Shown here: piece after piece, positions 19,968 to 54,776 of the stretch
How the letters are laid out: every line of letters begins with the position of its first letter
How positions within the stretch are numbered: the first letter of the stretch is position 1
Source: Eubacteriales bacterium
GTDB taxonomy: Bacteria > Bacillota > Clostridia > Oscillospirales > CAG-272
Direction: 5' to 3'
Length of the DNA stretch: 64,000 bases
NCBI GenBank assembly: GCA_045653805.1
Contig: JAZOMF010000094.1
Coordinates: 7,438 to 71,437 of the forward strand
Position numbers and translations under genes: made by a program
Notes under the pieces: generated by a model
Databases searched by the model: none
Seen by the model: the letters and a program-made list of their open reading frames with translations, nothing else
Told to the model about the DNA's origin: nothing

Positions 19968-20022
19968 GCAAAAGAAGGAGCATAAAGCGGACTTCTCATA
20001 AGGATGTTTGGATATTCTTCTT

Positions 20023-20049
20023 GTAGGGGTCGACGTCCTCGGCGACCCG
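20023..20049 (+). repeat. GTAG-family REP copy 1
   Basis: GTAGGGGTCGACGTCCTCGGCGACCCG: GTAG foot plus GGGTCG/CGACCC hairpin. Confidence 0.92.
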
Positions 20050-20280
20050 TTAAGGAAAATTTGATCCGCAGAAGACAAATAGATAACCCCGACAGATTTT
20101 TAAATTCTGTCGGGGATCATTTTATTCTGTTAGATAAATTGTATTTATCCAACTGTATTCAATTTGAAGATACCACCTTGAAAAACAATATCATTTCCTT
20201 GAGCATCTTTGTAAAACGATACATTTTCCGTTAACTCAAAGCCTAAACTCTTTAATAAGGATAGGCAAAGCCCATACCTC

Positions 20281-20796
20281 TTATTCTTCTGCATATAATT
20301 CATCGAAGTACCAGCGGACAGGGTTTTCGTAAATGTATTTCGCGATCTCCTCGTAATCCTTTCGTCCTCTGATAACGTGATCGTAAAATCCTCGTTGCCA
20401 TATATTCTCGCCGTATTCTTTATTGCAAAATCTTTTGAACGTCGATACAAAATGCGACACGAATGACGTTTGCTTTGTAGGGGTCGACGTCCTCGGCGAC
20501 CCGTCCTCATGAACAAACAATATAAGATGGATATGGTTTGGCATAATAACGTATTGATCTACGGTTAAATTTTCATAAAATTCATTCATTTGTTTTATGT
20601 ATTTATCCGCAACCATTCCGCGTGGCAACAATTCCACGTTCTGCGGGTCGCCGAGGACGTCGACCCCTACGATTCGAGATAAAATCTGTCGCCTTTTGTC
20701 CGTGCAAATCGTTATAAAATATGCACCTGTTGTGTTGTAATCAAATGCCTGTAACCTGGTAGGTTTTCTTTTCGGCACTTCATTTTCTTTATCCAT
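20281..20796 (-). CDS. REP-associated tyrosine transposase (RAYT, HUH/Y1 family)
   Basis: RKPTRLQAFDY..GAYFITICT, MPNHIH (HUH), FKRF, WQRGFYDHVIR, YIYENP. Confidence 0.92.
   Translation of the reverse strand: MDKENEVPKRKPTRLQAFDYNTTGAYFITICTDKRRQILSRIVGVDVLGDPQNVELLPRGMVADKYIKQMNEFYENLTVDQYVIMPNHIHLILFVHEDGSPRTSTPTKQTSFVSHFVSTFKRFCNKEYGENIWQRGFYDHVIRGRKDYEEIAKYIYENPVRWYFDELYAEE
20477..20503 (+). repeat. GTAG-family REP copy 2, inside the RAYT CDS
   Basis: Identical 27-mer; read as (D)GSPRTSTPT on the coding strand. Confidence 0.92.
20644..20670 (-). repeat. GTAG-family REP copy 3, inside the RAYT CDS
   Basis: Identical 27-mer on the minus strand; read as VGVDVLGDP. Confidence 0.92.
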
Positions 20797-20866
20797 TTTC
20801 ATCACCCATTTCATTATAACACAAATCGGCAGAGAAAACAATATCTCTGCCGAAATTTGGTTGTGG

Positions 20867-20893
20867 CGGGTCGCCGAGGACGTCGACCCCTAC
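20867..20893 (-). repeat. GTAG-family REP copy 4
   Basis: Identical 27-mer on the minus strand. Confidence 0.92.
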
Positions 20894-20944
20894 GGTGTAA
20901 TCATCCTTATGTAAATTTGCGCCAATACTCCTTCTTTTAGTTTG

Positions 20945-26852: not shown

Positions 26853-28331
26853 ATGGAAAATTACATAGTGCCTATATTATTACAGGTTGTTCTTATTGCG
26901 TTAAACGCTATATTTGCAAGCGCCGAAGCGGCATTTTTGTCAATTAATTCGGCAAGAATTGAAAAAATTATTGAAGAAGGCGACAGAAAGACCAAAAAGA
27001 GTGCGAGAAGACTTCAGAAGCTTACGAAGGATTCCTCCAAATTCTTGTCTACTATTCAGGTTGCCATCACATTGGCAGGATTTTTGGGTTCTGCATTTGC
27101 GGCTGAAAGCTTCGCAACTCCCTTGACAGAGTGGTTTAATAGCTTACCCTTTATGGCAAACAGCGGTTACGAGGTTGTTGAGGGTGTATTTGTTGTTATT
27201 ATTACGGTTGCGCTCTCCTTCTTTAGCATTGTCTTTGGCGAGCTTGTTCCCAAGAAGATCGCTATGAAGAACGCTGAAAAGCTTTCGCTCGGTATTTCCG
27301 GCTTTATCAGATTTATGTCGGTTATCTTTGCTCCTGTGGTTTGGATTCTTACTATAACCACTAACGCTATTCTTCGTATGTTTGGCATCAACCCCAACGA
27401 GGAAGAGGAGGCAGCAAGCGAGGAAGAGATCCGTATCATGCTGGATACCTCCAGCGAGGCGGGTGCTATCGACAGTATGGAAAACGAGATGATACAGAAT
27501 ATCTTCGAGTTCGACGACATTCTCATTTCTGAAGTATGTACTCACCGCCGCGACGTGGATATGCTCTACCGTGAGGATACTCTCGACGAGTGGAGAGAGA
27601 AGATCGTTACCTCAAGACACGGACTTTACCCCATCTGCGGAGAGGGTCCCGACGATATCGTTGGCGTGCTGAATATTAGGAAGTTCTTCAGATCCGATTG
27701 CAAGACCGTTGAGGATGCAATCGCCAAGGCAAGCGAAAAGCCCTACTTCGTGCCAGAAAACATGAAGGCGGACGTTCTCTTTACCAACATGAAGGAAACG
27801 AGAAACTATTTCGCTATCGTTGTAGACGAGTACGGCGGAACAAGTGGTGTTATCACCATTCACGATCTGCTTGAATTGCTGGTTGGCGATATGGGAGATA
27901 AGGAGGACGTTGTGGTTGAGGAGATCGTATGCCTCAGCGAGGAGGATTCTCAGTGGAAGATCCTCGGCTCTGCATCTCTTGAAAAGGTTGCAGAAGCACT
28001 TGACGTTACCTTTGAGACCGAGGATTGCGACACCTTTGGCGGATATATTCTCGGACTTCTCGGTGAGATCCCCGATGATGGAGCTACACTTGATCTTGAG
28101 ACCAATGACCTTACCATTAAGGTTGAGTCGGTTTCCGAGCACCGCATAGAATCTACTCTTGTAACCGTTAAGCCCAGACCCGCAGACGAGGATGACGAGG
28201 ACTACGATGAAGATGAGGACGAAGACGGCGAAAAGAAGAAGAAACGCAAGTCCAAGGATAATGATGAGGATGAAACCAAGTCTGAATCCGAGGAAAAAAC
28301 AAATTCTGCTGAGTCTGTTGCAGAAGAATAA
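26853..28331 (+). CDS. HlyC/CorC (CNNM-like) family protein: DUF21 TM domain, CBS pair, CorC domain, charged tail
   Basis: FASAEAAFLS, STIQVAITL, FGELVPKKIA, VVDEYGGTSGVITIHDLLE, TFGGYI. Confidence 0.93.
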   Translation: MENYIVPILLQVVLIALNAIFASAEAAFLSINSARIEKIIEEGDRKTKKSARRLQKLTKDSSKFLSTIQVAITLAGFLGSAFAAESFATPLTEWFNSLPFMANSGYEVVEGVFVVIITVALSFFSIVFGELVPKKIAMKNAEKLSLGISGFIRFMSVIFAPVVWILTITTNAILRMFGINPNEEEEAASEEEIRIMLDTSSEAGAIDSMENEMIQNIFEFDDILISEVCTHRRDVDMLYREDTLDEWREKIVTSRHGLYPICGEGPDDIVGVLNIRKFFRSDCKTVEDAIAKASEKPYFVPENMKADVLFTNMKETRNYFAIVVDEYGGTSGVITIHDLLELLVGDMGDKEDVVVEEIVCLSEEDSQWKILGSASLEKVAEALDVTFETEDCDTFGGYILGLLGEIPDDGATLDLETNDLTIKVESVSEHRIESTLVTVKPRPADEDDEDYDEDEDEDGEKKKKRKSKDNDEDETKSESEEKTNSAESVAEE

Positions 28332-28348: not shown

Positions 28349-28382
28349 ACGGCGGTGCAGATTGCATCGCCGTAAATTTTTT
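28349..28382 (+). terminator. Terminator after the CorC-type gene
   Basis: ACGGCGGTGCA / TGCATCGCCGT stem then AAATTTTTT. Confidence 0.7.
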
Positions 28383-28388
28383 GCCCAA

Positions 28389-28471
28389 TTTTGAAAGTTT
28401 TTTGAAAGGTGGGGAGGGTGCAGGGAGGGGCGGAAAACAATTTTTCAAAAATGTTTTCCGCCCCTCCCTGC
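28389..28471 (+). repeat. Dispersed hairpin element, copy A
   Basis: TTTTGAAAGTTTTTTG box plus 20-bp perfect stem around CAATTTTTCAAAAATG; homologous to 40812-40887 (minus). Confidence 0.8.
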
Positions 28472-28483
28472 GTTTATCCAATA

Positions 28484-29557
28484 TTAATCAAAATATCCAA
28501 GTCTGTAAAGAAGCTCTGCGATAAGGACTGCGCCGCCTGCCGCGCCGCGGAGAGTGTTGTGGGAAAGACCTACGAACTTGTAGTCGTAGATCGTGTCCTC
28601 ACGAAGACGACCTGCGGTTACGCCCATGCCGCCGTAGATATCACGGTCGAGCTTTGCCTGAGGACGGTTGTCTTCCTCAAAGTAGGTAATGAACTGCTCG
28701 GGAGCGTGGGGAAGTCCGAGCTCCTGGGGAAGTCCCTTGAAGTTCTTCCAGTCCTCAAGGATCTGCTCCTTAGTGGGCTTGTTCTCAAACTTTACGAATA
28801 CAGCCGCGGTGTGACCGTCGGTAACGGGTACGCGGATGCACTGGGTGGTGATAACGGTATCATTCGCCTTAACGATCTCGCCGCCCTCAACCTTGCCCCA
28901 CACGCGAAGGGGCTCCTGCTCGCTCTTTTCTTCCTCGCCGCCGATGTAGGGGATGATGTTGTCGATCATCTCGGGCCACTCGTTGAAGGTCTTGCCTGCA
29001 CCGGAGATAGCCTGGTATGTAGTAGCAACAACCTCCTTGATTCCGTACTTGCGGAGGGGGGTCAGCTCGGGAACGTATGCCTGAATAGAGCAGTTGGGCT
29101 TAACTGCGATAAATCCGCGCTTGGTGCCGAGTCTTGCTCTCTGAGATGCGATAACCTCAAGGTGCTCGGGGTTGATCTCCGGAATTACCATGGGAACGTC
29201 GGGAGTCCAGCGGTGGGCGGAGTTGTTGGATACAACGGGGATCTCAGCCTTGGCGTAAGCATACTCGAGAGCCTTGATATCGTCCTTCTTCATGTTAACT
29301 GCGCAGAAAACGAACTGGCATTCCTTCATTTCGTCGATGTTTTCAGCATCAACTACTACCATATCCGCATACTTTTCGGGCATGGGAGTCTGAAGCTTCC
29401 AACGTCCGCCAAGTGCCTCAGAATATTTCTTGCCTGCGCTGTTCTTGGAAGCAGCAAGCTTTACAACCTCAAAATAGGGGTGGTTTTCAAGCAGAGAAAG
29501 GAATCTCTGACCTACCATGCCTGTGGCGCCAACGACGCCGACCTTCATCTTTTCCAT
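28484..29557 (-). CDS. asd: Aspartate-semialdehyde dehydrogenase
   Basis: VGVVGATGMVGQ, KPNCSIQ, YQAISGAG, QCIRVPV, SHNTLRGAAG. Confidence 0.97.
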   Translation of the reverse strand: MEKMKVGVVGATGMVGQRFLSLLENHPYFEVVKLAASKNSAGKKYSEALGGRWKLQTPMPEKYADMVVVDAENIDEMKECQFVFCAVNMKKDDIKALEYAYAKAEIPVVSNNSAHRWTPDVPMVIPEINPEHLEVIASQRARLGTKRGFIAVKPNCSIQAYVPELTPLRKYGIKEVVATTYQAISGAGKTFNEWPEMIDNIIPYIGGEEEKSEQEPLRVWGKVEGGEIVKANDTVITTQCIRVPVTDGHTAAVFVKFENKPTKEQILEDWKNFKGLPQELGLPHAPEQFITYFEEDNRPQAKLDRDIYGGMGVTAGRLREDTIYDYKFVGLSHNTLRGAAGGAVLIAELLYRLGYFD

Positions 29558-37981: not shown

Positions 37982-38054
37982 TAATTGAATGGCAAATTTC
38001 GGAAAAACTTTGCCCTTAAAGGAAAAACAACCCCGAGAAAAGGAGTTTGAAATT

Positions 38055-40796
38055 ATGGATTTTAAGAACATCGACAAAAAATACCGTCCTGTGCCATTTT
38101 GGTCGTGGAACGAAAAGCTGAATGTTCCCGAGTCTCTCCGCCAGACCGCACTTATGGACGAGGTTGGTATCGGTGGCTACTTCATGCACGCTCGCGGCGG
38201 TCTTCAAACCGAGTATATGGGTGAGGAGTGGTTCGAAAACATCGGCGCTTGTATCGAGGAGTGCAACAAGAGAGGTATGCACGCTTGGGCATACGATGAA
38301 AACGGTTGGCCATCCGGCTTTGGTGGCGGCAAGGTCAATGGCAAGGGTGAGAAGTACTGGCAGAAGTATCTCCGCGTTATGCCTGCAGACGGTGACAAGA
38401 GCAATATCGAGCCTCATCGCATTATCTGCACCACCGGAGAATATACCTTCTATTACGATGTTAACCCTTTCTACGTTGATACTCTCGACGCAGAGGTTAT
38501 ACTTGACTTTATCAACGAAATATACGAGCCATATTATGAGAAGTACGGCTCCACCTTCGACGGATTTTTCACCGACGAGCCCCAGATCTCCAGAAACGGT
38601 ATTCCATGGAGCCTGACCTTTATTGACAAGTATCGCGAAAAGTACGGCGAGGATATTTGCGCTGTTCTTCCTTCGCTTTTCTTTGAGGTTGGAGATTTCC
38701 GGACCGTAAGAATCAAGTTCTGGAAGATGGTTACCGATCTTTTCTCGGCAAACTTTATGAAGCAGATATTCGATTGGTGTAATGCTCACAATCTTAAGTT
38801 CACCGGTCACTTGGTGCTTGAGGAGACCCTTATGGTTCAGCTTATCACCAACGGTGCTTGCATGCCTCACTATGAGTATCTTACTATTCCGGGTATGGAC
38901 TGGCTCGGCAGAAACATCTTCCCCTGCCTCACTCACCATCAGGTAGGCTCTGCCGCGGCGCAGGTCGGCAGACGTCAGGTGCTTTCCGAGACCTTTGCGC
39001 TCTGCGGACACAACGTAGGTCACGACGAGCTTAAGAGAAACTACGAATGGATGATGGTGCGCGGTATCAACCTTATGTGCCAGCACCTTGAGGGATATTC
39101 CAACAGAGGTATTCGTAAGAGAGACTATCCTCCGGCAATGTACATCCAGCAGCCTTGGTGGGCAGACTACAAGGTGTTCAACGATGCTATGAGCCGCGTT
39201 GGTATGCTACTTGCAGAGGGTGAGATCAAGTTCGACACCCTGCTTATGCACAATATGACATCCGCTTGGGTTACCTACAACAACGGAAATAACACTCTTC
39301 CCGACGGCAAGGATATCACATACTATAACACCTCTCTTATCAACGCTACCCCCGCTCTTGAGGCGAAGCACATTCCTTTCCACTTGGGCGACGAGACCCT
39401 TATGGAGAGACACGGACGCGTTGAGGGCAATAAGCTTATTATCGGTGAGCAGACCTATACCACCGTTGTTCTCCCCGAGTATATCTGCTTTATGGAGAAC
39501 ACCCAGAAGCTTCTTGACGAGTTCCGCGCTAACGGCGGTAAGATCGTAACCGACGTCTCCACTCTTGAAGCTAACCCAATTATCGACAATGAGAAGATCA
39601 CCTTCACTTGGCGTGACTTTGGTGACTTCAAGATGTACTATTTTGTAAACTCCAACAATAGCACCGAGCAGGCGACCATCACCAAGGGTAGCTATGCTAT
39701 CGACATCGCAACCGGTGAAAAGGTTGAATTCTGTGGCGAATATACTTTCCCAGCATACGGAAGCCTTGTTGTTATCGACGACGGCACTCCCGCAAGAGCA
39801 AAGAAGGCAGAGAAGAACCTCACCGCACTTGACATCAGCGGCAAGTGGGCAGTTGAAAACGCAACATTTAACTCCGTAACTCTTGACAAGTGCGACTACT
39901 GGTTCGACGGCGAGCTTCAGGAGGAGAACGGATACGTGCTTAACGTCGTGCCCAGAACCACCGAGCTTCACCGTCCTGTAAATGTTCGTTGCGCGTTTAA
40001 GGTTGACCTTGAGTATGTTTCCGACAAGCTCTTCGTCGCAGTTGAAACTCCCGAGATCTTTACCGTTAAGGTAAACGGTGTGGAGATCGACAAGACCGAT
40101 TGCGGATTCTTCCGCGATGCCTCCTTCCGTATGCTTGACATCCAGAAGTATGCAAAGGTTGGCAAAAACGTAATCGAGCTTATCTCTCTCATTACTCAGT
40201 CCGAAGAGGTTTATGAGAACATTGAAAAGAGCAAGAAGTTTGAGTCTGAAAAGAACAAGCTTACGTATGATATGGAGATCGAGGCTATGTACCTCGTAGG
40301 CGACTTTGCAGTTAAGGCAGACGGCGTATTTGAGCCTATCGAAAACAACGCATACTTCTTCGACGGTAAGTTTACTGTGGTTAAGCCTGCCGATGAGATA
40401 GAGCTTAAGAACCTTGAGCAGAACGGATATTCTTTCTTTGCAGGCGAGCTTTGTGTTTCCAAGAAGTTTACCTTGGATAGCACCGATTACAAGCTTTCCT
40501 TCGTAAAGAACGGGTTTAATGCTCTGCGTGTAAAGGTTAACGGCAAGTACGTTTGCACCTCTATGTGGGCACCCTACGATGTCGACCTCTCCGAGTATCT
40601 CACCGTTGGCGAGAACACCGTTGAGCTGACTATCGTAAATAACCTCCGTAATCTCCTCGGTCCTCACCACCACATCCGTGGCGAGCTCTTGTCGGTCAGC
40701 CCCTCCTCCTTCTATAAGGAGCGTTGCATCTGGAATAGCTTCCGCACCGACTACTTCACCGAGAAGTATAGCTTCGTTAATACCGGCTTGATTTAA
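38055..40796 (+). CDS. Large glycoside hydrolase, GH106/GH2-like (alpha-L-rhamnosidase-like)
   Basis: YRPVPFWSWN, YFMHARGGL, YDENGWPSG, FFTDEP, SETFAL; no signal peptide; substrate uncertain. Confidence 0.8.
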   Translation: MDFKNIDKKYRPVPFWSWNEKLNVPESLRQTALMDEVGIGGYFMHARGGLQTEYMGEEWFENIGACIEECNKRGMHAWAYDENGWPSGFGGGKVNGKGEKYWQKYLRVMPADGDKSNIEPHRIICTTGEYTFYYDVNPFYVDTLDAEVILDFINEIYEPYYEKYGSTFDGFFTDEPQISRNGIPWSLTFIDKYREKYGEDICAVLPSLFFEVGDFRTVRIKFWKMVTDLFSANFMKQIFDWCNAHNLKFTGHLVLEETLMVQLITNGACMPHYEYLTIPGMDWLGRNIFPCLTHHQVGSAAAQVGRRQVLSETFALCGHNVGHDELKRNYEWMMVRGINLMCQHLEGYSNRGIRKRDYPPAMYIQQPWWADYKVFNDAMSRVGMLLAEGEIKFDTLLMHNMTSAWVTYNNGNNTLPDGKDITYYNTSLINATPALEAKHIPFHLGDETLMERHGRVEGNKLIIGEQTYTTVVLPEYICFMENTQKLLDEFRANGGKIVTDVSTLEANPIIDNEKITFTWRDFGDFKMYYFVNSNNSTEQATITKGSYAIDIATGEKVEFCGEYTFPAYGSLVVIDDGTPARAKKAEKNLTALDISGKWAVENATFNSVTLDKCDYWFDGELQEENGYVLNVVPRTTELHRPVNVRCAFKVDLEYVSDKLFVAVETPEIFTVKVNGVEIDKTDCGFFRDASFRMLDIQKYAKVGKNVIELISLITQSEEVYENIEKSKKFESEKNKLTYDMEIEAMYLVGDFAVKADGVFEPIENNAYFFDGKFTVVKPADEIELKNLEQNGYSFFAGELCVSKKFTLDSTDYKLSFVKNGFNALRVKVNGKYVCTSMWAPYDVDLSEYLTVGENTVELTIVNNLRNLLGPHHHIRGELLSVSPSSFYKERCIWNSFRTDYFTEKYSFVNTGLI

Positions 40797-40811
40797 TTTA
40801 ATAATGTAATA

Positions 40812-40887
40812 TGCGGGGGAAGGAAACCATTTTTGAAAAATTGGTTTCCTTCTCCCGCACCCCCTTCTTTCCAAAAAACTTTCAAAA
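40812..40887 (-). repeat. Dispersed hairpin element, copy B
   Basis: Same two 16-bp boxes as 28389-28471, with a different 18-bp stem. Confidence 0.8.
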
Positions 40888-40912
40888 GGGAAGAGGGGGA
40901 TAGGCAATATTA

Positions 40913-40947
40913 TAGCCCTCACGAGGTAAATTCGCTCGTGAGGGCTA
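40913..40947. terminator. Terminator of the HAD gene
   Basis: TAGCCCTCACGAG / CTCGTGAGGGCTA. Confidence 0.75.
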
Positions 40948-40957
40948 AAATTTTTAG

Positions 40958-41815
40958 TTATTTATTGCTCTTATATTTCGAAAGCTGGTTTTTTTCCTTG
41001 GTGCTGAGCTTTTCAAGCACCGCCATATTTTCGATCATCAATTCCACGATGTTTTCAAGGGCTGAATCGGGAGAATAGTCTGCGGCACAGACGTAGTTGA
41101 TTCGCTCGTCGTCTACAAGGGGCTTAACGGTCTCGCTATTGCCGGGGGCGTAGAGTGCGATGGACTTACCTCCGCGCTCCTTAACCAGCTTCATACAGGG
41201 AATATCGGTCATTCCGTCACCGATATAGATCATATTTCTATATGCTATACGGCGCAGGCTTTCGTCCTGAACTCGGTTGAGGTTGTAATCGTCGGTTACG
41301 TCCAACGTGCCTTTGGATATACGATAGATATACTGTGTTTTGAGAGTGTAGTTGATGGCGAGAGCGGGCCAGATAGCCTCGCCCTGCTCGTTATACATAT
41401 ATCTGCAGGCGTAGATGCGCTTGAAATATTTTGCAATGGGAGTACCCTGAATTATCTCGTACGTGCCTGAGGAAATGATATAATGCTCGATATTGACACC
41501 GAGAGACTCGCCGTAGGCGTTGATTCTGTCAAACCAAGTGAGAACACCATCAAAAAATACTACATTTTTAGCGCAGCTTTTAAGATATTCCTCGGTCAAG
41601 GGAATTCCTCTTTCCTTGCAGGTCTTGATCATTACGAACATATAGGAAAGTATCTTTTCAACCTCGTTGGTTTTGGAAACGTGAGCCGCCTCGCCCCAGA
41701 ATTCATCGGGAGTCATATTGAGCTTTTTTATAAAGTCATATTCCTGCATATCGGTGGTGCAGAGAGTTTTATCAAAATCGTAGAGAATAGCTATTGTAGG
41801 CCTTGACATGGTCAT
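40958..41815 (-). CDS. HAD-superfamily hydrolase
   Basis: YDFDKTL, IISSG, K, YIGDGMTDIPCM. Confidence 0.9.
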   Translation of the reverse strand: MTMSRPTIAILYDFDKTLCTTDMQEYDFIKKLNMTPDEFWGEAAHVSKTNEVEKILSYMFVMIKTCKERGIPLTEEYLKSCAKNVVFFDGVLTWFDRINAYGESLGVNIEHYIISSGTYEIIQGTPIAKYFKRIYACRYMYNEQGEAIWPALAINYTLKTQYIYRISKGTLDVTDDYNLNRVQDESLRRIAYRNMIYIGDGMTDIPCMKLVKERGGKSIALYAPGNSETVKPLVDDERINYVCAADYSPDSALENIVELMIENMAVLEKLSTKEKNQLSKYKSNK

Positions 41816-53921: not shown

Positions 53922-54776
53922 ATGTTTATAAGCAGAGAGGTCATTACGTCACCGCAGAACAAATACGTCAGCCTCGCCCGAGGTTTGAGCAATAAAAAGA
54001 ACAGAGAAAAAGAGCAAAAATTCCGTTTTGACGGCATCAAATTGATGTGCGAAGCGCTGAAAAAAGGCGTTTGCATCAGCTTTATTTTGGCGTCGGATAA
54101 GGAGTGGAGCTCTGTGCTTGAAAAGGCAGAAAAGCTTTACGGCATAAAGGAAAATGATATAAATTGTCCCGTTATTTCGGTTGAAACCTCACTTTTTGAA
54201 AAATTGAGCGAGGAAATGGCTCCCGAGGGAGTTATTTGCGTTGCTGAATACGAAAAGGAACTTCATTCCGATGTTAGCGCGGACGAGCGTTTTTCTTGTG
54301 AAGCACACGAAAAAATACTTATTCTCGAGTCGGTAAGAGACCCTCAAAACGTGGGCGCTATAGTCCGTGTTGCGGCAGCGTTTGGAGTTGACCGCATCGT
54401 TATGAGCAAGGATTGTGCCGACATCTACAATTCAAAGACAATACGCGCCTCTATGGGCACTGTATTTTCCAAGCGCATTGATAGGGTATCTGATATGCCT
54501 TGTGTCGTAAAGGATATTCAAGGTTCAGTCAGAAGAGTTTTTGCTGCGGCACTTGAGAGAGATTCTGAAAAGCTGGGCGAACTTCAGCTTCGGACTGGCG
54601 ATTGTGTTATCATTGGAAATGAGGGACACGGACTTAGCCGTGAGGTCATTGAGGCTTGTGACGGAACCGTGTTTATCCCTATGGCGGATGGCGTAGAGTC
54701 GTTGAATGCGGCTACTGCGGCGGCAGTATTGGTTTGGGAATTCTTTAGGCCGACACATAACGGAGGTGCCGTATGA
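53922..54776 (+). CDS. TrmH/SpoU family RNA methyltransferase
   Basis: ITSPQN, LESVRDPQNVGAIVR, IGNEGHG, IPMADGVESLNAA. Confidence 0.93.
   Translation: MFISREVITSPQNKYVSLARGLSNKKNREKEQKFRFDGIKLMCEALKKGVCISFILASDKEWSSVLEKAEKLYGIKENDINCPVISVETSLFEKLSEEMAPEGVICVAEYEKELHSDVSADERFSCEAHEKILILESVRDPQNVGAIVRVAAAFGVDRIVMSKDCADIYNSKTIRASMGTVFSKRIDRVSDMPCVVKDIQGSVRRVFAAALERDSEKLGELQLRTGDCVIIGNEGHGLSREVIEACDGTVFIPMADGVESLNAATAAAVLVWEFFRPTHNGGAV

Follow-up and report, generated by a model that had tools for sequence, protein, structure and literature searches.

To our knowledge, intrastrand triplex repeats of the BoxC/PIT kind have been known for 25 years without a function. In E. coli, the repeat called BoxC, PIT (potential intrastrand triplex), or TM_ECO has the form CCCTCNCCC N3-6 GGGNGAGGG N3 GGGNGAGGG (Holder et al. 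2015, PMC4666352; Hoyne et al. 2000 is the earlier source, as cited there), and it is present in 23 copies in strain MG1655, all of them intergenic and without strand bias, with a copy number that varies between strains (PMC4666352). As single-stranded DNA, TM_ECO forms a stable triplex in vitro according to CD and NMR, and it was not detected folded in vivo by DMS; BoxC has neither promoter nor terminator activity and is associated with local genomic variability (PMC4666352). The purine motif is not formed in RNA, while intrastrand triplexes of the pyrimidine type can form there (PMC4666352). The E. coli copies of BoxC hardly differ from one another and so offer no covariation to read, and this is one of the reasons why it is hard to judge whether the triplex matters in cells.

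Here we describe a repeat of uncultured gut Clostridia that bears on this question. What is known about it is the design, which is that of the intrastrand triplex motifs BoxC/PIT/TM_ECO (PMC4666352), whereas the sequence family, which is not described there, and a copy-specific mirror relation between flank and stem are new; the first-pass annotation had left it to be seen whether the element would match an already described family, and it does so in layout but not in sequence. The TM_ECO consensus itself has 0 matches in the genome studied here, either as the full pattern or as the half pattern.

The element was first noticed as two copies, A and B, in the window, that is, the whole stretch of 64,000 nucleotides that was analysed. 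The two exact 16-mers reported as common to both copies are indeed each found exactly twice in the window and on opposite strands, at 28389/40872 and 28438/40828, against a chance expectation of 0.12-0.20, and likewise only twice in the whole genome (1.76 Mb in 99 contigs). Also as reported, the stem of copy A consists of 20 perfect pairs (28420-28439 with 28452-28471), and that of copy B of 17-18 bp (40812-40828 with 40843-40859), with one G-T on the plus strand that corresponds to A.C on the other strand; DNA folding of both regions gives z values of -5.3 to -8.0 relative to dinucleotide shuffles. The motif TTTTGAAA is present in both boxes in opposite orientations, and convergent gene pairs flank both copies: a CNNM/CorC-like gene (26853-28331, plus strand) and asd (28484-29557, minus strand) around copy A, and genes of 935 aa (37989-40796, plus strand) and 285 aa (40958-41815, minus strand) around copy B. 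Each copy had been placed immediately downstream of a separate intrinsic terminator. A terminator does adjoin each of them, but the element lies between the stop codon of the abutting gene and the terminator of that same gene, and both copies are inside the 3' UTR of the abutting gene, namely asd for copy A and the 935-aa gene for copy B. The order from the abutting gene is the stop codon, 12-15 nt, the hairpin, the box, and then the terminator, with its T run in the sense of the gene. The extent first given to the element is real, but the element is longer, with copy B adding a C-rich arm at 40888-40899 that pairs with the purine spacer. The features of both copies are as follows:

28349 to 28373, no strand assigned: canonical bidirectional terminator at copy A, common to the CNNM-like gene and asd, with 11 pairs, an A run before, a T run after, and the tail AAATTTTTTG.
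28389 to 28409, plus strand: box of copy A, the tandem TTTTGAAAG / TTTTTTGAAAGG; an image of the hairpin apex and the putative distal, AT-rich part of the mirror (third-strand) tract.
28405 to 28418, plus strand: purine mirror tract of copy A, AAAGGTGGGGAGGG, the reverse of 28423-28436 at 13/14 positions, the exception being a T opposite a C-G pair.
28419 to 28422, plus strand: linker TGCA of copy A, the centre of the mirror symmetry; 28420-28422 also belong to the hairpin foot.
28420 to 28471, plus strand: hairpin of copy A, with the purine-rich 5' arm at 28420-28439, the apex at 28440-28451 (ATTTTTCAAAAA), and the pyrimidine-rich 3' arm at 28452-28471; 12 nt separate its end from the stop codon of asd on the other strand.
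40812 to 40859, minus strand: hairpin of copy B, with the 5' arm at 40859-40843, the apex at 40842-40829, and the 3' arm at 40828-40812; it starts 15 nt past the stop codon of the 935-aa gene.
40860 to 40872, minus strand: purine mirror tract of copy B, GGAAAGAAGGGGG, the reverse of the hairpin 5' arm at 9/11 positions.
40872 to 40887, minus strand: box of copy B, TTTTGAAAGTTTTTTG.
40888 to 40899, minus strand: outer C-rich arm of copy B, CCCCCTCTTCCC, which forms a second hairpin with the purine mirror tract, the box being the loop (fold of 40808-40903, both strands).
40914 to 40946, plus strand: neighbouring hairpin of copy B, AGCCCTCACGAG-(9 nt)-CTCGTGAGGGCT followed by AAAATTTTT, with a T run on the plus strand only.

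The last of these hairpins is likely the terminator of the transcript that runs through copy B; it was not flagged by our terminator scan because its 9-nt loop is above the limit of 8 nt used there. The mirror tract of copy B agrees better with the complement of its 3' arm than with its 5' arm, which suggests that the 5' arm of this copy has recently undergone a G>A change; in the G045 orthologue (G numbers denote genomes) the match is 11/11. Apart from these two copies, the window holds a RAYT gene at about 19970-20938 together with its own GTAG REPs, a different REP (GTAGGGGTCGACGTCCTCGGCGACCC).

The two copies belong to a real, multi-copy, genus-centred family of non-coding intergenic repeats in uncultured gut Clostridia, with relatives elsewhere in the order. 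Relaxed patterns, nhmmer, and a covariance model built from 23 copies (A1, R1) give about 25-30 loci in the genome that carries the window (G000), and hundreds of copies exist in its relatives, so that the first-pass annotation was right in expecting a dispersed family with conserved boxes and covarying stems, and its own caveat that only these two copies might exist falls away. Double changes occur in 13 of the 15 consensus stem pairs. Matches were found in 21/24 sampled congener species, with 0 to 91 two-strand matches in each (0 to about 45 copies), the genomes compared being incomplete MAGs. At the level of the order, 10/301 genomes, in 8/153 genera, give a match at E <= 1e-5, and at least 14 copies are present in a species of another genus whose sister species lacks the element; versions with AT-richer stems and an unchanged box and apex are found in other Clostridia MAGs. 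A pattern scan of genome contigs gave for the most part chance matches in AT-rich genomes and a few true relatives. No Rfam family reached its gathering score over the element, with only tRNA in the window and otherwise sub-threshold generic hairpins (miRNA precursor), and a literature search on the box and apex strings returned only chance matches, such as the start of the C. difficile 16S-23S spacer.

The copies are intergenic and lie in either orientation. On one strand, the order of tracts is (often) a C-rich tract, the box, the purine tract, the linker, the 5' arm, the apex, and the 3' arm. The box is AT-rich, with the consensus TTTTGAAAG-TTTTTGRAAG; the linker between the mirror tract and the 5' arm has 1-5 nt in most copies (G, TGC, or TGCA); and the apex, also AT-rich, has the consensus AAAAC-T6-C-A6-GTTTT and is flanked by a purine-rich 5' arm and a pyrimidine-rich 3' arm. 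The TTTTGAAA motif occurs three times per element, twice as a direct repeat and once inverted at the apex.

The central finding is that the box and the purine spacer of a copy are together the reverse, and not the reverse complement, of the 5' arm and apex of that same copy, with the hairpin foot as the centre of symmetry. Examples, written as mirror tract / linker / 5' arm with the number of matching positions, are:

Copy L197: AAAGAGGAGGGG / TGC / GGGGAGGAGAAA, 12/12.
Copy C62:13235 of the same genome as the window: AAAGGGAGGGGC / G / CGGGGAGGGAAA, 12/12.
Copy L221: AAGGAAGGGGG / TGC / GGGGGAAGGAA, 11/11.
Copy L257: TTTTTGAAAAAGAGGGGGGT / C / TGGGGGGAGAAAAAACTTTT, 18/20.
Copy A: AAAGGTGGGGAGGG / TGCA / GGGAGGGGCGGAAA, 13/14.

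In local alignments, a flank scores 9.76 in the mirror sense with its own arm and 7.60 when flank and arm come from different copies, whereas the controls have no such effect, either in the direct sense (6.94 versus 6.84) or as the reverse complement (6.36 versus 6.51). Anchored comparisons over 12 nt, with equal shift optimisation for own and other partners, give 10.1 matches with the own partner versus 7.4 with the others. Among 18 non-redundant copies, none of 5000 partner permutations reached the observed sum, and the best mirror score of 495 other strong hairpins of the genome averaged 4.95 (5.6 for those with purine-rich arms) versus 8.32 for the family. The relation was replicated in 40 held-out copies from G001 and G012, fetched afterwards, which gave a mean of 9.26 with 0/20000 permutations reaching the observed sum, the permutation test being run at three redundancy thresholds. 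The copy-specific mirror relation between flank and stem is therefore statistically robust and replicated.

The same relation can be read position by position. When 59 distinct copies are written as triads (third tract. 5' arm - 3' arm), 823 are canonical (394 G.G-C, 240 T.T-A, and 189 A.A-T); the commonest exception is T.C-G, with 58 cases, while a C at a C-interrupted purine arm was seen 11 times. Changes in all three tracts together, such as A.A-T to G.G-C, are visible between orthologues: at the asd locus, GAAAGG / GGAAAAC / GTTTTCC (third tract / 5' arm / 3' arm) of the copy in the window becomes GAGAGG / GGAGAAC / GTTCTCC in G001 and G008, and at the leuA-leuC locus G045 has T|G|T...A in place of C|G|C...G. 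A TTCTT variant likewise affects box and apex together (TTCTT...AAGAA) in three copies of the genome studied here and their orthologues, and in one copy of another genus. The tracking is imperfect: of the pairwise cells with a covaried stem pair, 41% have a matching third tract in both copies, 43% in one copy, and 16% in neither. The element contains all three tracts by which intrastrand triplex motifs (ITxF classes I-IV) are defined, namely a purine tract, a complementary pyrimidine tract, and a mirror tract.

DNA rearrangement yields direct or inverted repeats, not mirror repeats, and therefore a copy-specific mirror relation calls for a physical constraint. The known constraint by which a base comes to be the same as the one facing it is a triple helix. 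A purine third strand runs antiparallel to the duplex's purine strand and gives G.G-C and A.A-T, while a pyrimidine third strand runs parallel to the purine strand and gives T.A-T and C+.G-C; in the element, the 5' tract has an antiparallel orientation relative to the 5' arm and a parallel one relative to the 3' arm, in agreement with both rules. We suggest that the single strand would fold into the hairpin, with the 5' tract lying as a third strand in the major groove. Along the purine stretches of the 5' arm, this tract would form reverse-Hoogsteen G.G-C and A.A-T triads, and at the apex, where it is the 3' arm that carries the purines, Hoogsteen T.A-T and C+.G-C triads, with the TTCTT variant giving C+.G-C. 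This fold would make the top strand a purine-motif intrastrand triplex of class I that has an alternate-strand extension, and the complementary strand would have the class III pyrimidine-motif layout. Box and apex vary in step, with TTTTT or TTCTT in both, so that the supposed invariant boxes are better explained by a probable third strand in mirror image, of which they would be the distal part, than by protein sites. Where C-G interrupts the antiparallel motif, the third base is preferably T; the excess of T.C-G fits this preference, which favours the G-rich DNA strand. DNA is the more likely carrier, as with BoxC/TM_ECO of E. coli, and it could be single-stranded DNA during replication or transcription or, under supercoiling, H-DNA. 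In many copies, the upstream C-rich tract pairs with the purine tract, so that the unit reads Y-R|R-Y and a second hairpin mirrors the first; this second hairpin, with its outer C-rich arm, would compete with the triplex.

From the comparisons above, we infer a triplex fold behind the mirror relation, and DNA rather than RNA as its carrier. The best explanation for the whole, and a moderately probable one, is a natural dispersed repeat with a fold-back intrastrand triplex, more likely carried by DNA, that has spread by copy-and-paste. It may be a selfish repeat that forms structure and might cause local instability, and it would be tolerated where it stands, after a stop codon and ahead of the terminator or between cistrons. 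The support for the triplex is one of sequence symmetry, and several points count against it. The linker often has 1 nt, with mirror identity up to the centre, which leaves less room than a fold-back loop requires; between the Watson-Crick tracts stands a self-pairing apex of 20-25 nt, outside the ITxF loop range (1-6 nt); the third tract follows covaried stem pairs incompletely, as given above; the alternate-strand crossing at the junction of A run and T run is sterically demanding; and TM_ECO, as said above, was not found folded in vivo. More tentatively, and with a lesser probability that leaves it a possibility rather than an expectation, the element could be a natural intramolecular triplex of 20-30 triads whose third strand switches from the purine to the pyrimidine motif, which competes with the second hairpin in a two-state manner, and which spreads without a partner of the RAYT or DUF559 type. 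If this were true, the three-way covariation of its variable stems would be the first evolutionary evidence known to us of a selected bacterial intrastrand triplex.

The genomic context tells how the copies have moved and where they are retained. In 17/26 copies of the genome studied here, the hairpin lies 4-21 nt after a stop codon in the mRNA sense (the gene being on the other strand), and in about 7 a same-strand start codon is found 14-31 nt downstream of the hairpin foot. Some copies are inside operons, directly upstream of ribosome-binding sites, and the ilv-leu cluster has four copies in four consecutive spacers. At the 3' end of asd, the element is present in 10 species, with five different stems, while in about 18 there is nothing but a canonical terminator. 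Between leuA and leuC, 9 distant congeners have a tight junction of 0-30 nt (for instance TAA-GGAGG-N-ATG) without element, whereas most of the nearer congeners have one or two elements or derivatives, and one has a 75-nt spacer without element. Orthologues of copy B are found in G045, G016, G015, G001, and G043, and canonical terminators take their place in G012, G042, and G023. Three species share identical versions of some orthologous copies, whereas elsewhere hairpins of 88-92% identity have unrelated flanks, and other REP-like units are inserted into some copies. Given the filled and unfilled orthologous sites, the identical orthologues, and the near-identical hairpins with unrelated flanks, we infer that the copies spread by copy-and-paste in the past and were probably then inherited by vertical descent. 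No sequence record encoding the asd protein of copy A was found, and a metagenome scan gave only relatives of at most 86% identity, with one element among 80 loci, just after asd as well.

Such turnover is also what would be expected of a REP- or MITE-like mobile element, whose boxes (TTTTGAAA) would bind a transposase, a nuclease, or a nucleoid protein and whose hairpin would be the recognised structure, with the mirror relation secondary. The first-pass annotation had favoured a REP-like mobile or protein-bound element of non-GTAG type, and part of this holds: it is a multi-copy family, unevenly distributed over species and even over sister species, absent from some orthologous sites where only a canonical terminator or a tight junction is found, represented by near-identical copies at unrelated loci, and open to insertion of other REP-like units, and each element has three TTTTGAAA motifs. 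Its feet are TGC(A), TGT, CGC, or TTT and never GTAG, as had been said. The linked nuclease or transposase gene that was to be looked for has no counterpart in the data, since neither Y1_Tnp/RAYT nor DUF559 genes track the copy number. Y1_Tnp is absent from the copy-rich G012 (91 matches), G021 (58), G004 (54), and G007 (41), all of them incomplete MAGs; a DUF559 nuclease is absent from G000, G001, G012, G016, G021, and G004; and no R1 match lies within 1.5 kb of any of 20 congener DUF559 genes. There is no GTAG/GTGG head; neither terminal inverted repeats nor target-site duplications are seen between filled and unfilled orthologous sites, which are too diverged for base-exact boundaries; and the GC-skew strand bias that would be expected for ssDNA transposition is absent (13/26). 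A protein site leaves unexplained why a variable purine tract mirrors its own stem, and the boxes are better read as a putative third strand, so that we consider a REP/MITE-like element with protein-binding boxes quite unlikely.

An RNA element is the serious rival, because two thirds of the copies stand right after a stop codon in the mRNA sense. According to it, the very stable 3'-UTR or intercistronic hairpin would block exonucleases or mark processing, stabilising or uncoupling cistrons, possibly with a variant in which the pyrimidine tract behind the hairpin folds back as a Hoogsteen strand (class III, U.A-U / C+.G-C). The hairpins right after stop codons (17/26) could equally indicate such an RNA role; the canonical terminator follows the element, both window copies lie in the 3' UTR of the abutting gene, and four copies fill successive ilv-leu spacers. 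Pyrimidine-motif intrastrand triplexes are possible in RNA (PMC4666352), and the AT-rich copy C8:14371-14413 would give one rich in U.A-U. In contrast, about one third of the copies are opposite to transcription, where the RNA would have the purine-motif layout that RNA does not form (PMC4666352); the G-rich stems would need 4-6 protonated cytosines in a row at neutral pH; and the T found at C interruptions (58 versus 11 C) would place an unfavourable A opposite C-G on the RNA-sense strand. On balance, an RNA stabiliser appears unlikely. Still less can be said for decayed or specialised terminators that evolved in place and came to resemble each other by convergence (G-rich 5' arm, TTTTGAAA-type loop, neighbouring T runs). 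The canonical terminators of congeners at these sites do combine a G-rich 5' arm with a TTTTGAAA-like loop, as in GGGGAAAAGGCCTTTTGAAAGGCCTTTTCCCC-TTATGTTTTTTT, and in one copy (C32:4294) the T run of the box comes directly after a small hairpin, but no U tract follows the element hairpin on either strand (the tails are ACCCTCCCC... and GTTTATCC), which agrees with the initial view that it is not a terminator. Moreover, a separate canonical terminator adjoins both window copies and the asd orthologues, the copies inside operons are directly upstream of ribosome-binding sites, and non-orthologous copies share subfamily markers, all of which makes a terminator origin very unlikely. As to a switch between G-quadruplex and hairpin from the G runs of the purine tracts, four G3+ runs are found in copy A and some others, but this motif occurs in only 25/117 distinct copies and not in copy B, and a quadruplex does not predict a position-by-position mirror identity that includes the A positions; we regard it as extremely unlikely.

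Other candidates were rejected on inspection. The box contains TTGAAA as a possible -35, but no -10 follows at 16-18 nt; a CodY box (AATTTTCWGAAAATT) at the apex, suggested by the four ilv-leu copies, differs by eye in its three central bases in all copies; and the Shine-Dalgarno-like GAAAGAGGTG, taken as the start of a small ORF, opens frames that are not conserved and run antisense into neighbouring genes.

With the fold-back triplex as the preferred reading, the diverged stems of the Clostridial family, in which a third tract follows its own hairpin, offer a comparative handle on selection for a three-stranded fold, and the family yields short testable oligonucleotides. The mirror rule alone explains both "invariant boxes". 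For genome annotation, this is a class of gut Clostridia repeats, seated in 3' UTRs and in the spacers of operons, that could be mistaken for terminators, small RNAs, or REPs.

Compared with the known systems, the element is closest to BoxC/TM_ECO, as both are multi-copy and intergenic without strand bias, both have G-rich purine tracts mirrored about a linker (3 nt in BoxC) together with a complementary C-rich tract on the same strand, and in both the opposite strand has a pyrimidine-motif layout. Both also differ greatly in copy number between close relatives, with no associated mobile element or function known, and the paired "palindromic" form of some BoxC units is comparable to the Clostridial Y-R|R-Y layout. 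In contrast to BoxC, the G-rich Clostridial strand has its putative third strand first (class I), the BoxC order (class II) being obtained only with the outer C-rich arm; its tracts have 12-22 nt versus 9; the loop between its Watson-Crick tracts is formed by a long AT-rich apex that pairs with itself and has its mirror image in the box, which would lead to the alternate-strand extension; and its stems vary, so that three-way covariation is visible. The hosts are Clostridia here and Proteobacteria or Cyanobacteria for the BoxC type, and the sequences are unrelated. The element shares with REP/BIME/REPIN units that they are short extragenic palindromes in many copies, found between convergent genes and inside operons, and nestable with other repeats, but unlike REP/RAYT systems, it has no GTAG/GTGG head and a copy number unrelated to Y1_Tnp genes; its loops are conserved and its stems variable, whereas REPs show the reverse and have no mirror tract. 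Alternate-strand triplexes were reportedly designed by Beal and Dervan and by Jayasena and Johnston in the early 1990s. Like H-DNA and these alternate-strand triplexes, the Clostridial element is a purine-rich mirror repeat about a short centre, with a third strand that would switch motif where the purines change strand. It differs from H-DNA in that the duplex partner is on the same strand by way of an inverted repeat, and no supercoiling would be needed once the strand is single, and it differs from a single H-DNA tract or a designed oligonucleotide in being a natural dispersed family.

The intergenic hairpin element also occurs in the ilv-leu gene cluster of its own genome (G000), and related units were found in the same genome and in a metagenome contig, as follows:

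G000, contig C62, 10241-17024 (locus L189): four elements, one in each of four successive spacers within the ilvC-coaX-ECF-ilvD-leuA-leuC-leuB-ilvE cluster
Locus L140, 2344-2410: a related box-plus-hairpin unit on a metagenome contig whose asd is 72% identical
G000, contig C55, 7395-7920 (locus L184, 895-1420): example of a second, longer repeat family
G000, contig C8, 14371-14413: an AT-rich relative of the element

Three of the four ilv-leu cluster elements lie in gene sense directly upstream of ribosome-binding sites, and the remaining one is reversed. The metagenome unit, the only one found among 80 metagenome loci, belongs to a GC-richer organism and again sits just 3' of asd, past the asd terminator. 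Within the window, the apex 16-mer shared by copies A and B has just one further near match (54191-54206, minus strand, two mismatches), which was rejected as another copy and is taken as a chance match because both the box and the hairpin are absent there.

We also observed that the longer repeat family of this genome, which reads ...TAAATTGATGTTTAGCGG...TGTTGAAAGTTTTTACG-TCGCTTTTTTCAAAAAGCGA-CCGCCCATCCAACGCGCGGAGCGTTGGTCGCCGCGCGCACGCGGCGAAA... and has no match in Rfam, shares a module with the element, namely the same box and the TTTTTTCAAAAA-apex hairpin, followed in the longer family by two GC-rich hairpins. Besides the C55 example, it occupies at least 20 further places, many of them about 100 nt from contig ends, and the spacer separating two putative genes, hpf and a pepD-like one (both named by eye), is filled by two of its units in inverted arrangement.

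In the case of the AT-rich relative on C8, the pyrimidine 5' arm TTCCTTTTTTCTCTTTTT is mirrored by the 5' flank TTTTTCTCTTTTTTC and has AAAAAGAGAAAAAAGGAA as its pairing partner, with a mirror score of 15, the highest among hairpins not assigned to the element family. Its layout is of class IV and rich in U.A-U, and might form in RNA.

Other repeats have entered the elements in congener genomes: a REP-like GC-rich hairpin unit sits between the hairpin and the mirror tract 3' of asd in G012 (L029), and another is inserted in the purine tract of the element in the leuA-leuC spacer of G043 (L200), and therefore the elements are themselves targets of other repeats. The genus's DUF559 nuclease genes, at L259 of G006 and at other congener loci, are flanked by a hairpin pair, ...CCTCCCCTGTGTAAGGGGAGG... 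and ...GCTCCCTTTACACAAGGGAGC..., which is different from the element.

In the congeners G042 (L224) and G023 (L225), canonical terminators lie 3' of the 935-aa gene's orthologue. They resemble the element's hairpin in composition, with the 5' arm rich in G and the loop TTTTGAAA-like, and differ from it in that a T run comes next; this shared composition hints that the element's hairpin and the local terminators may have a common origin.
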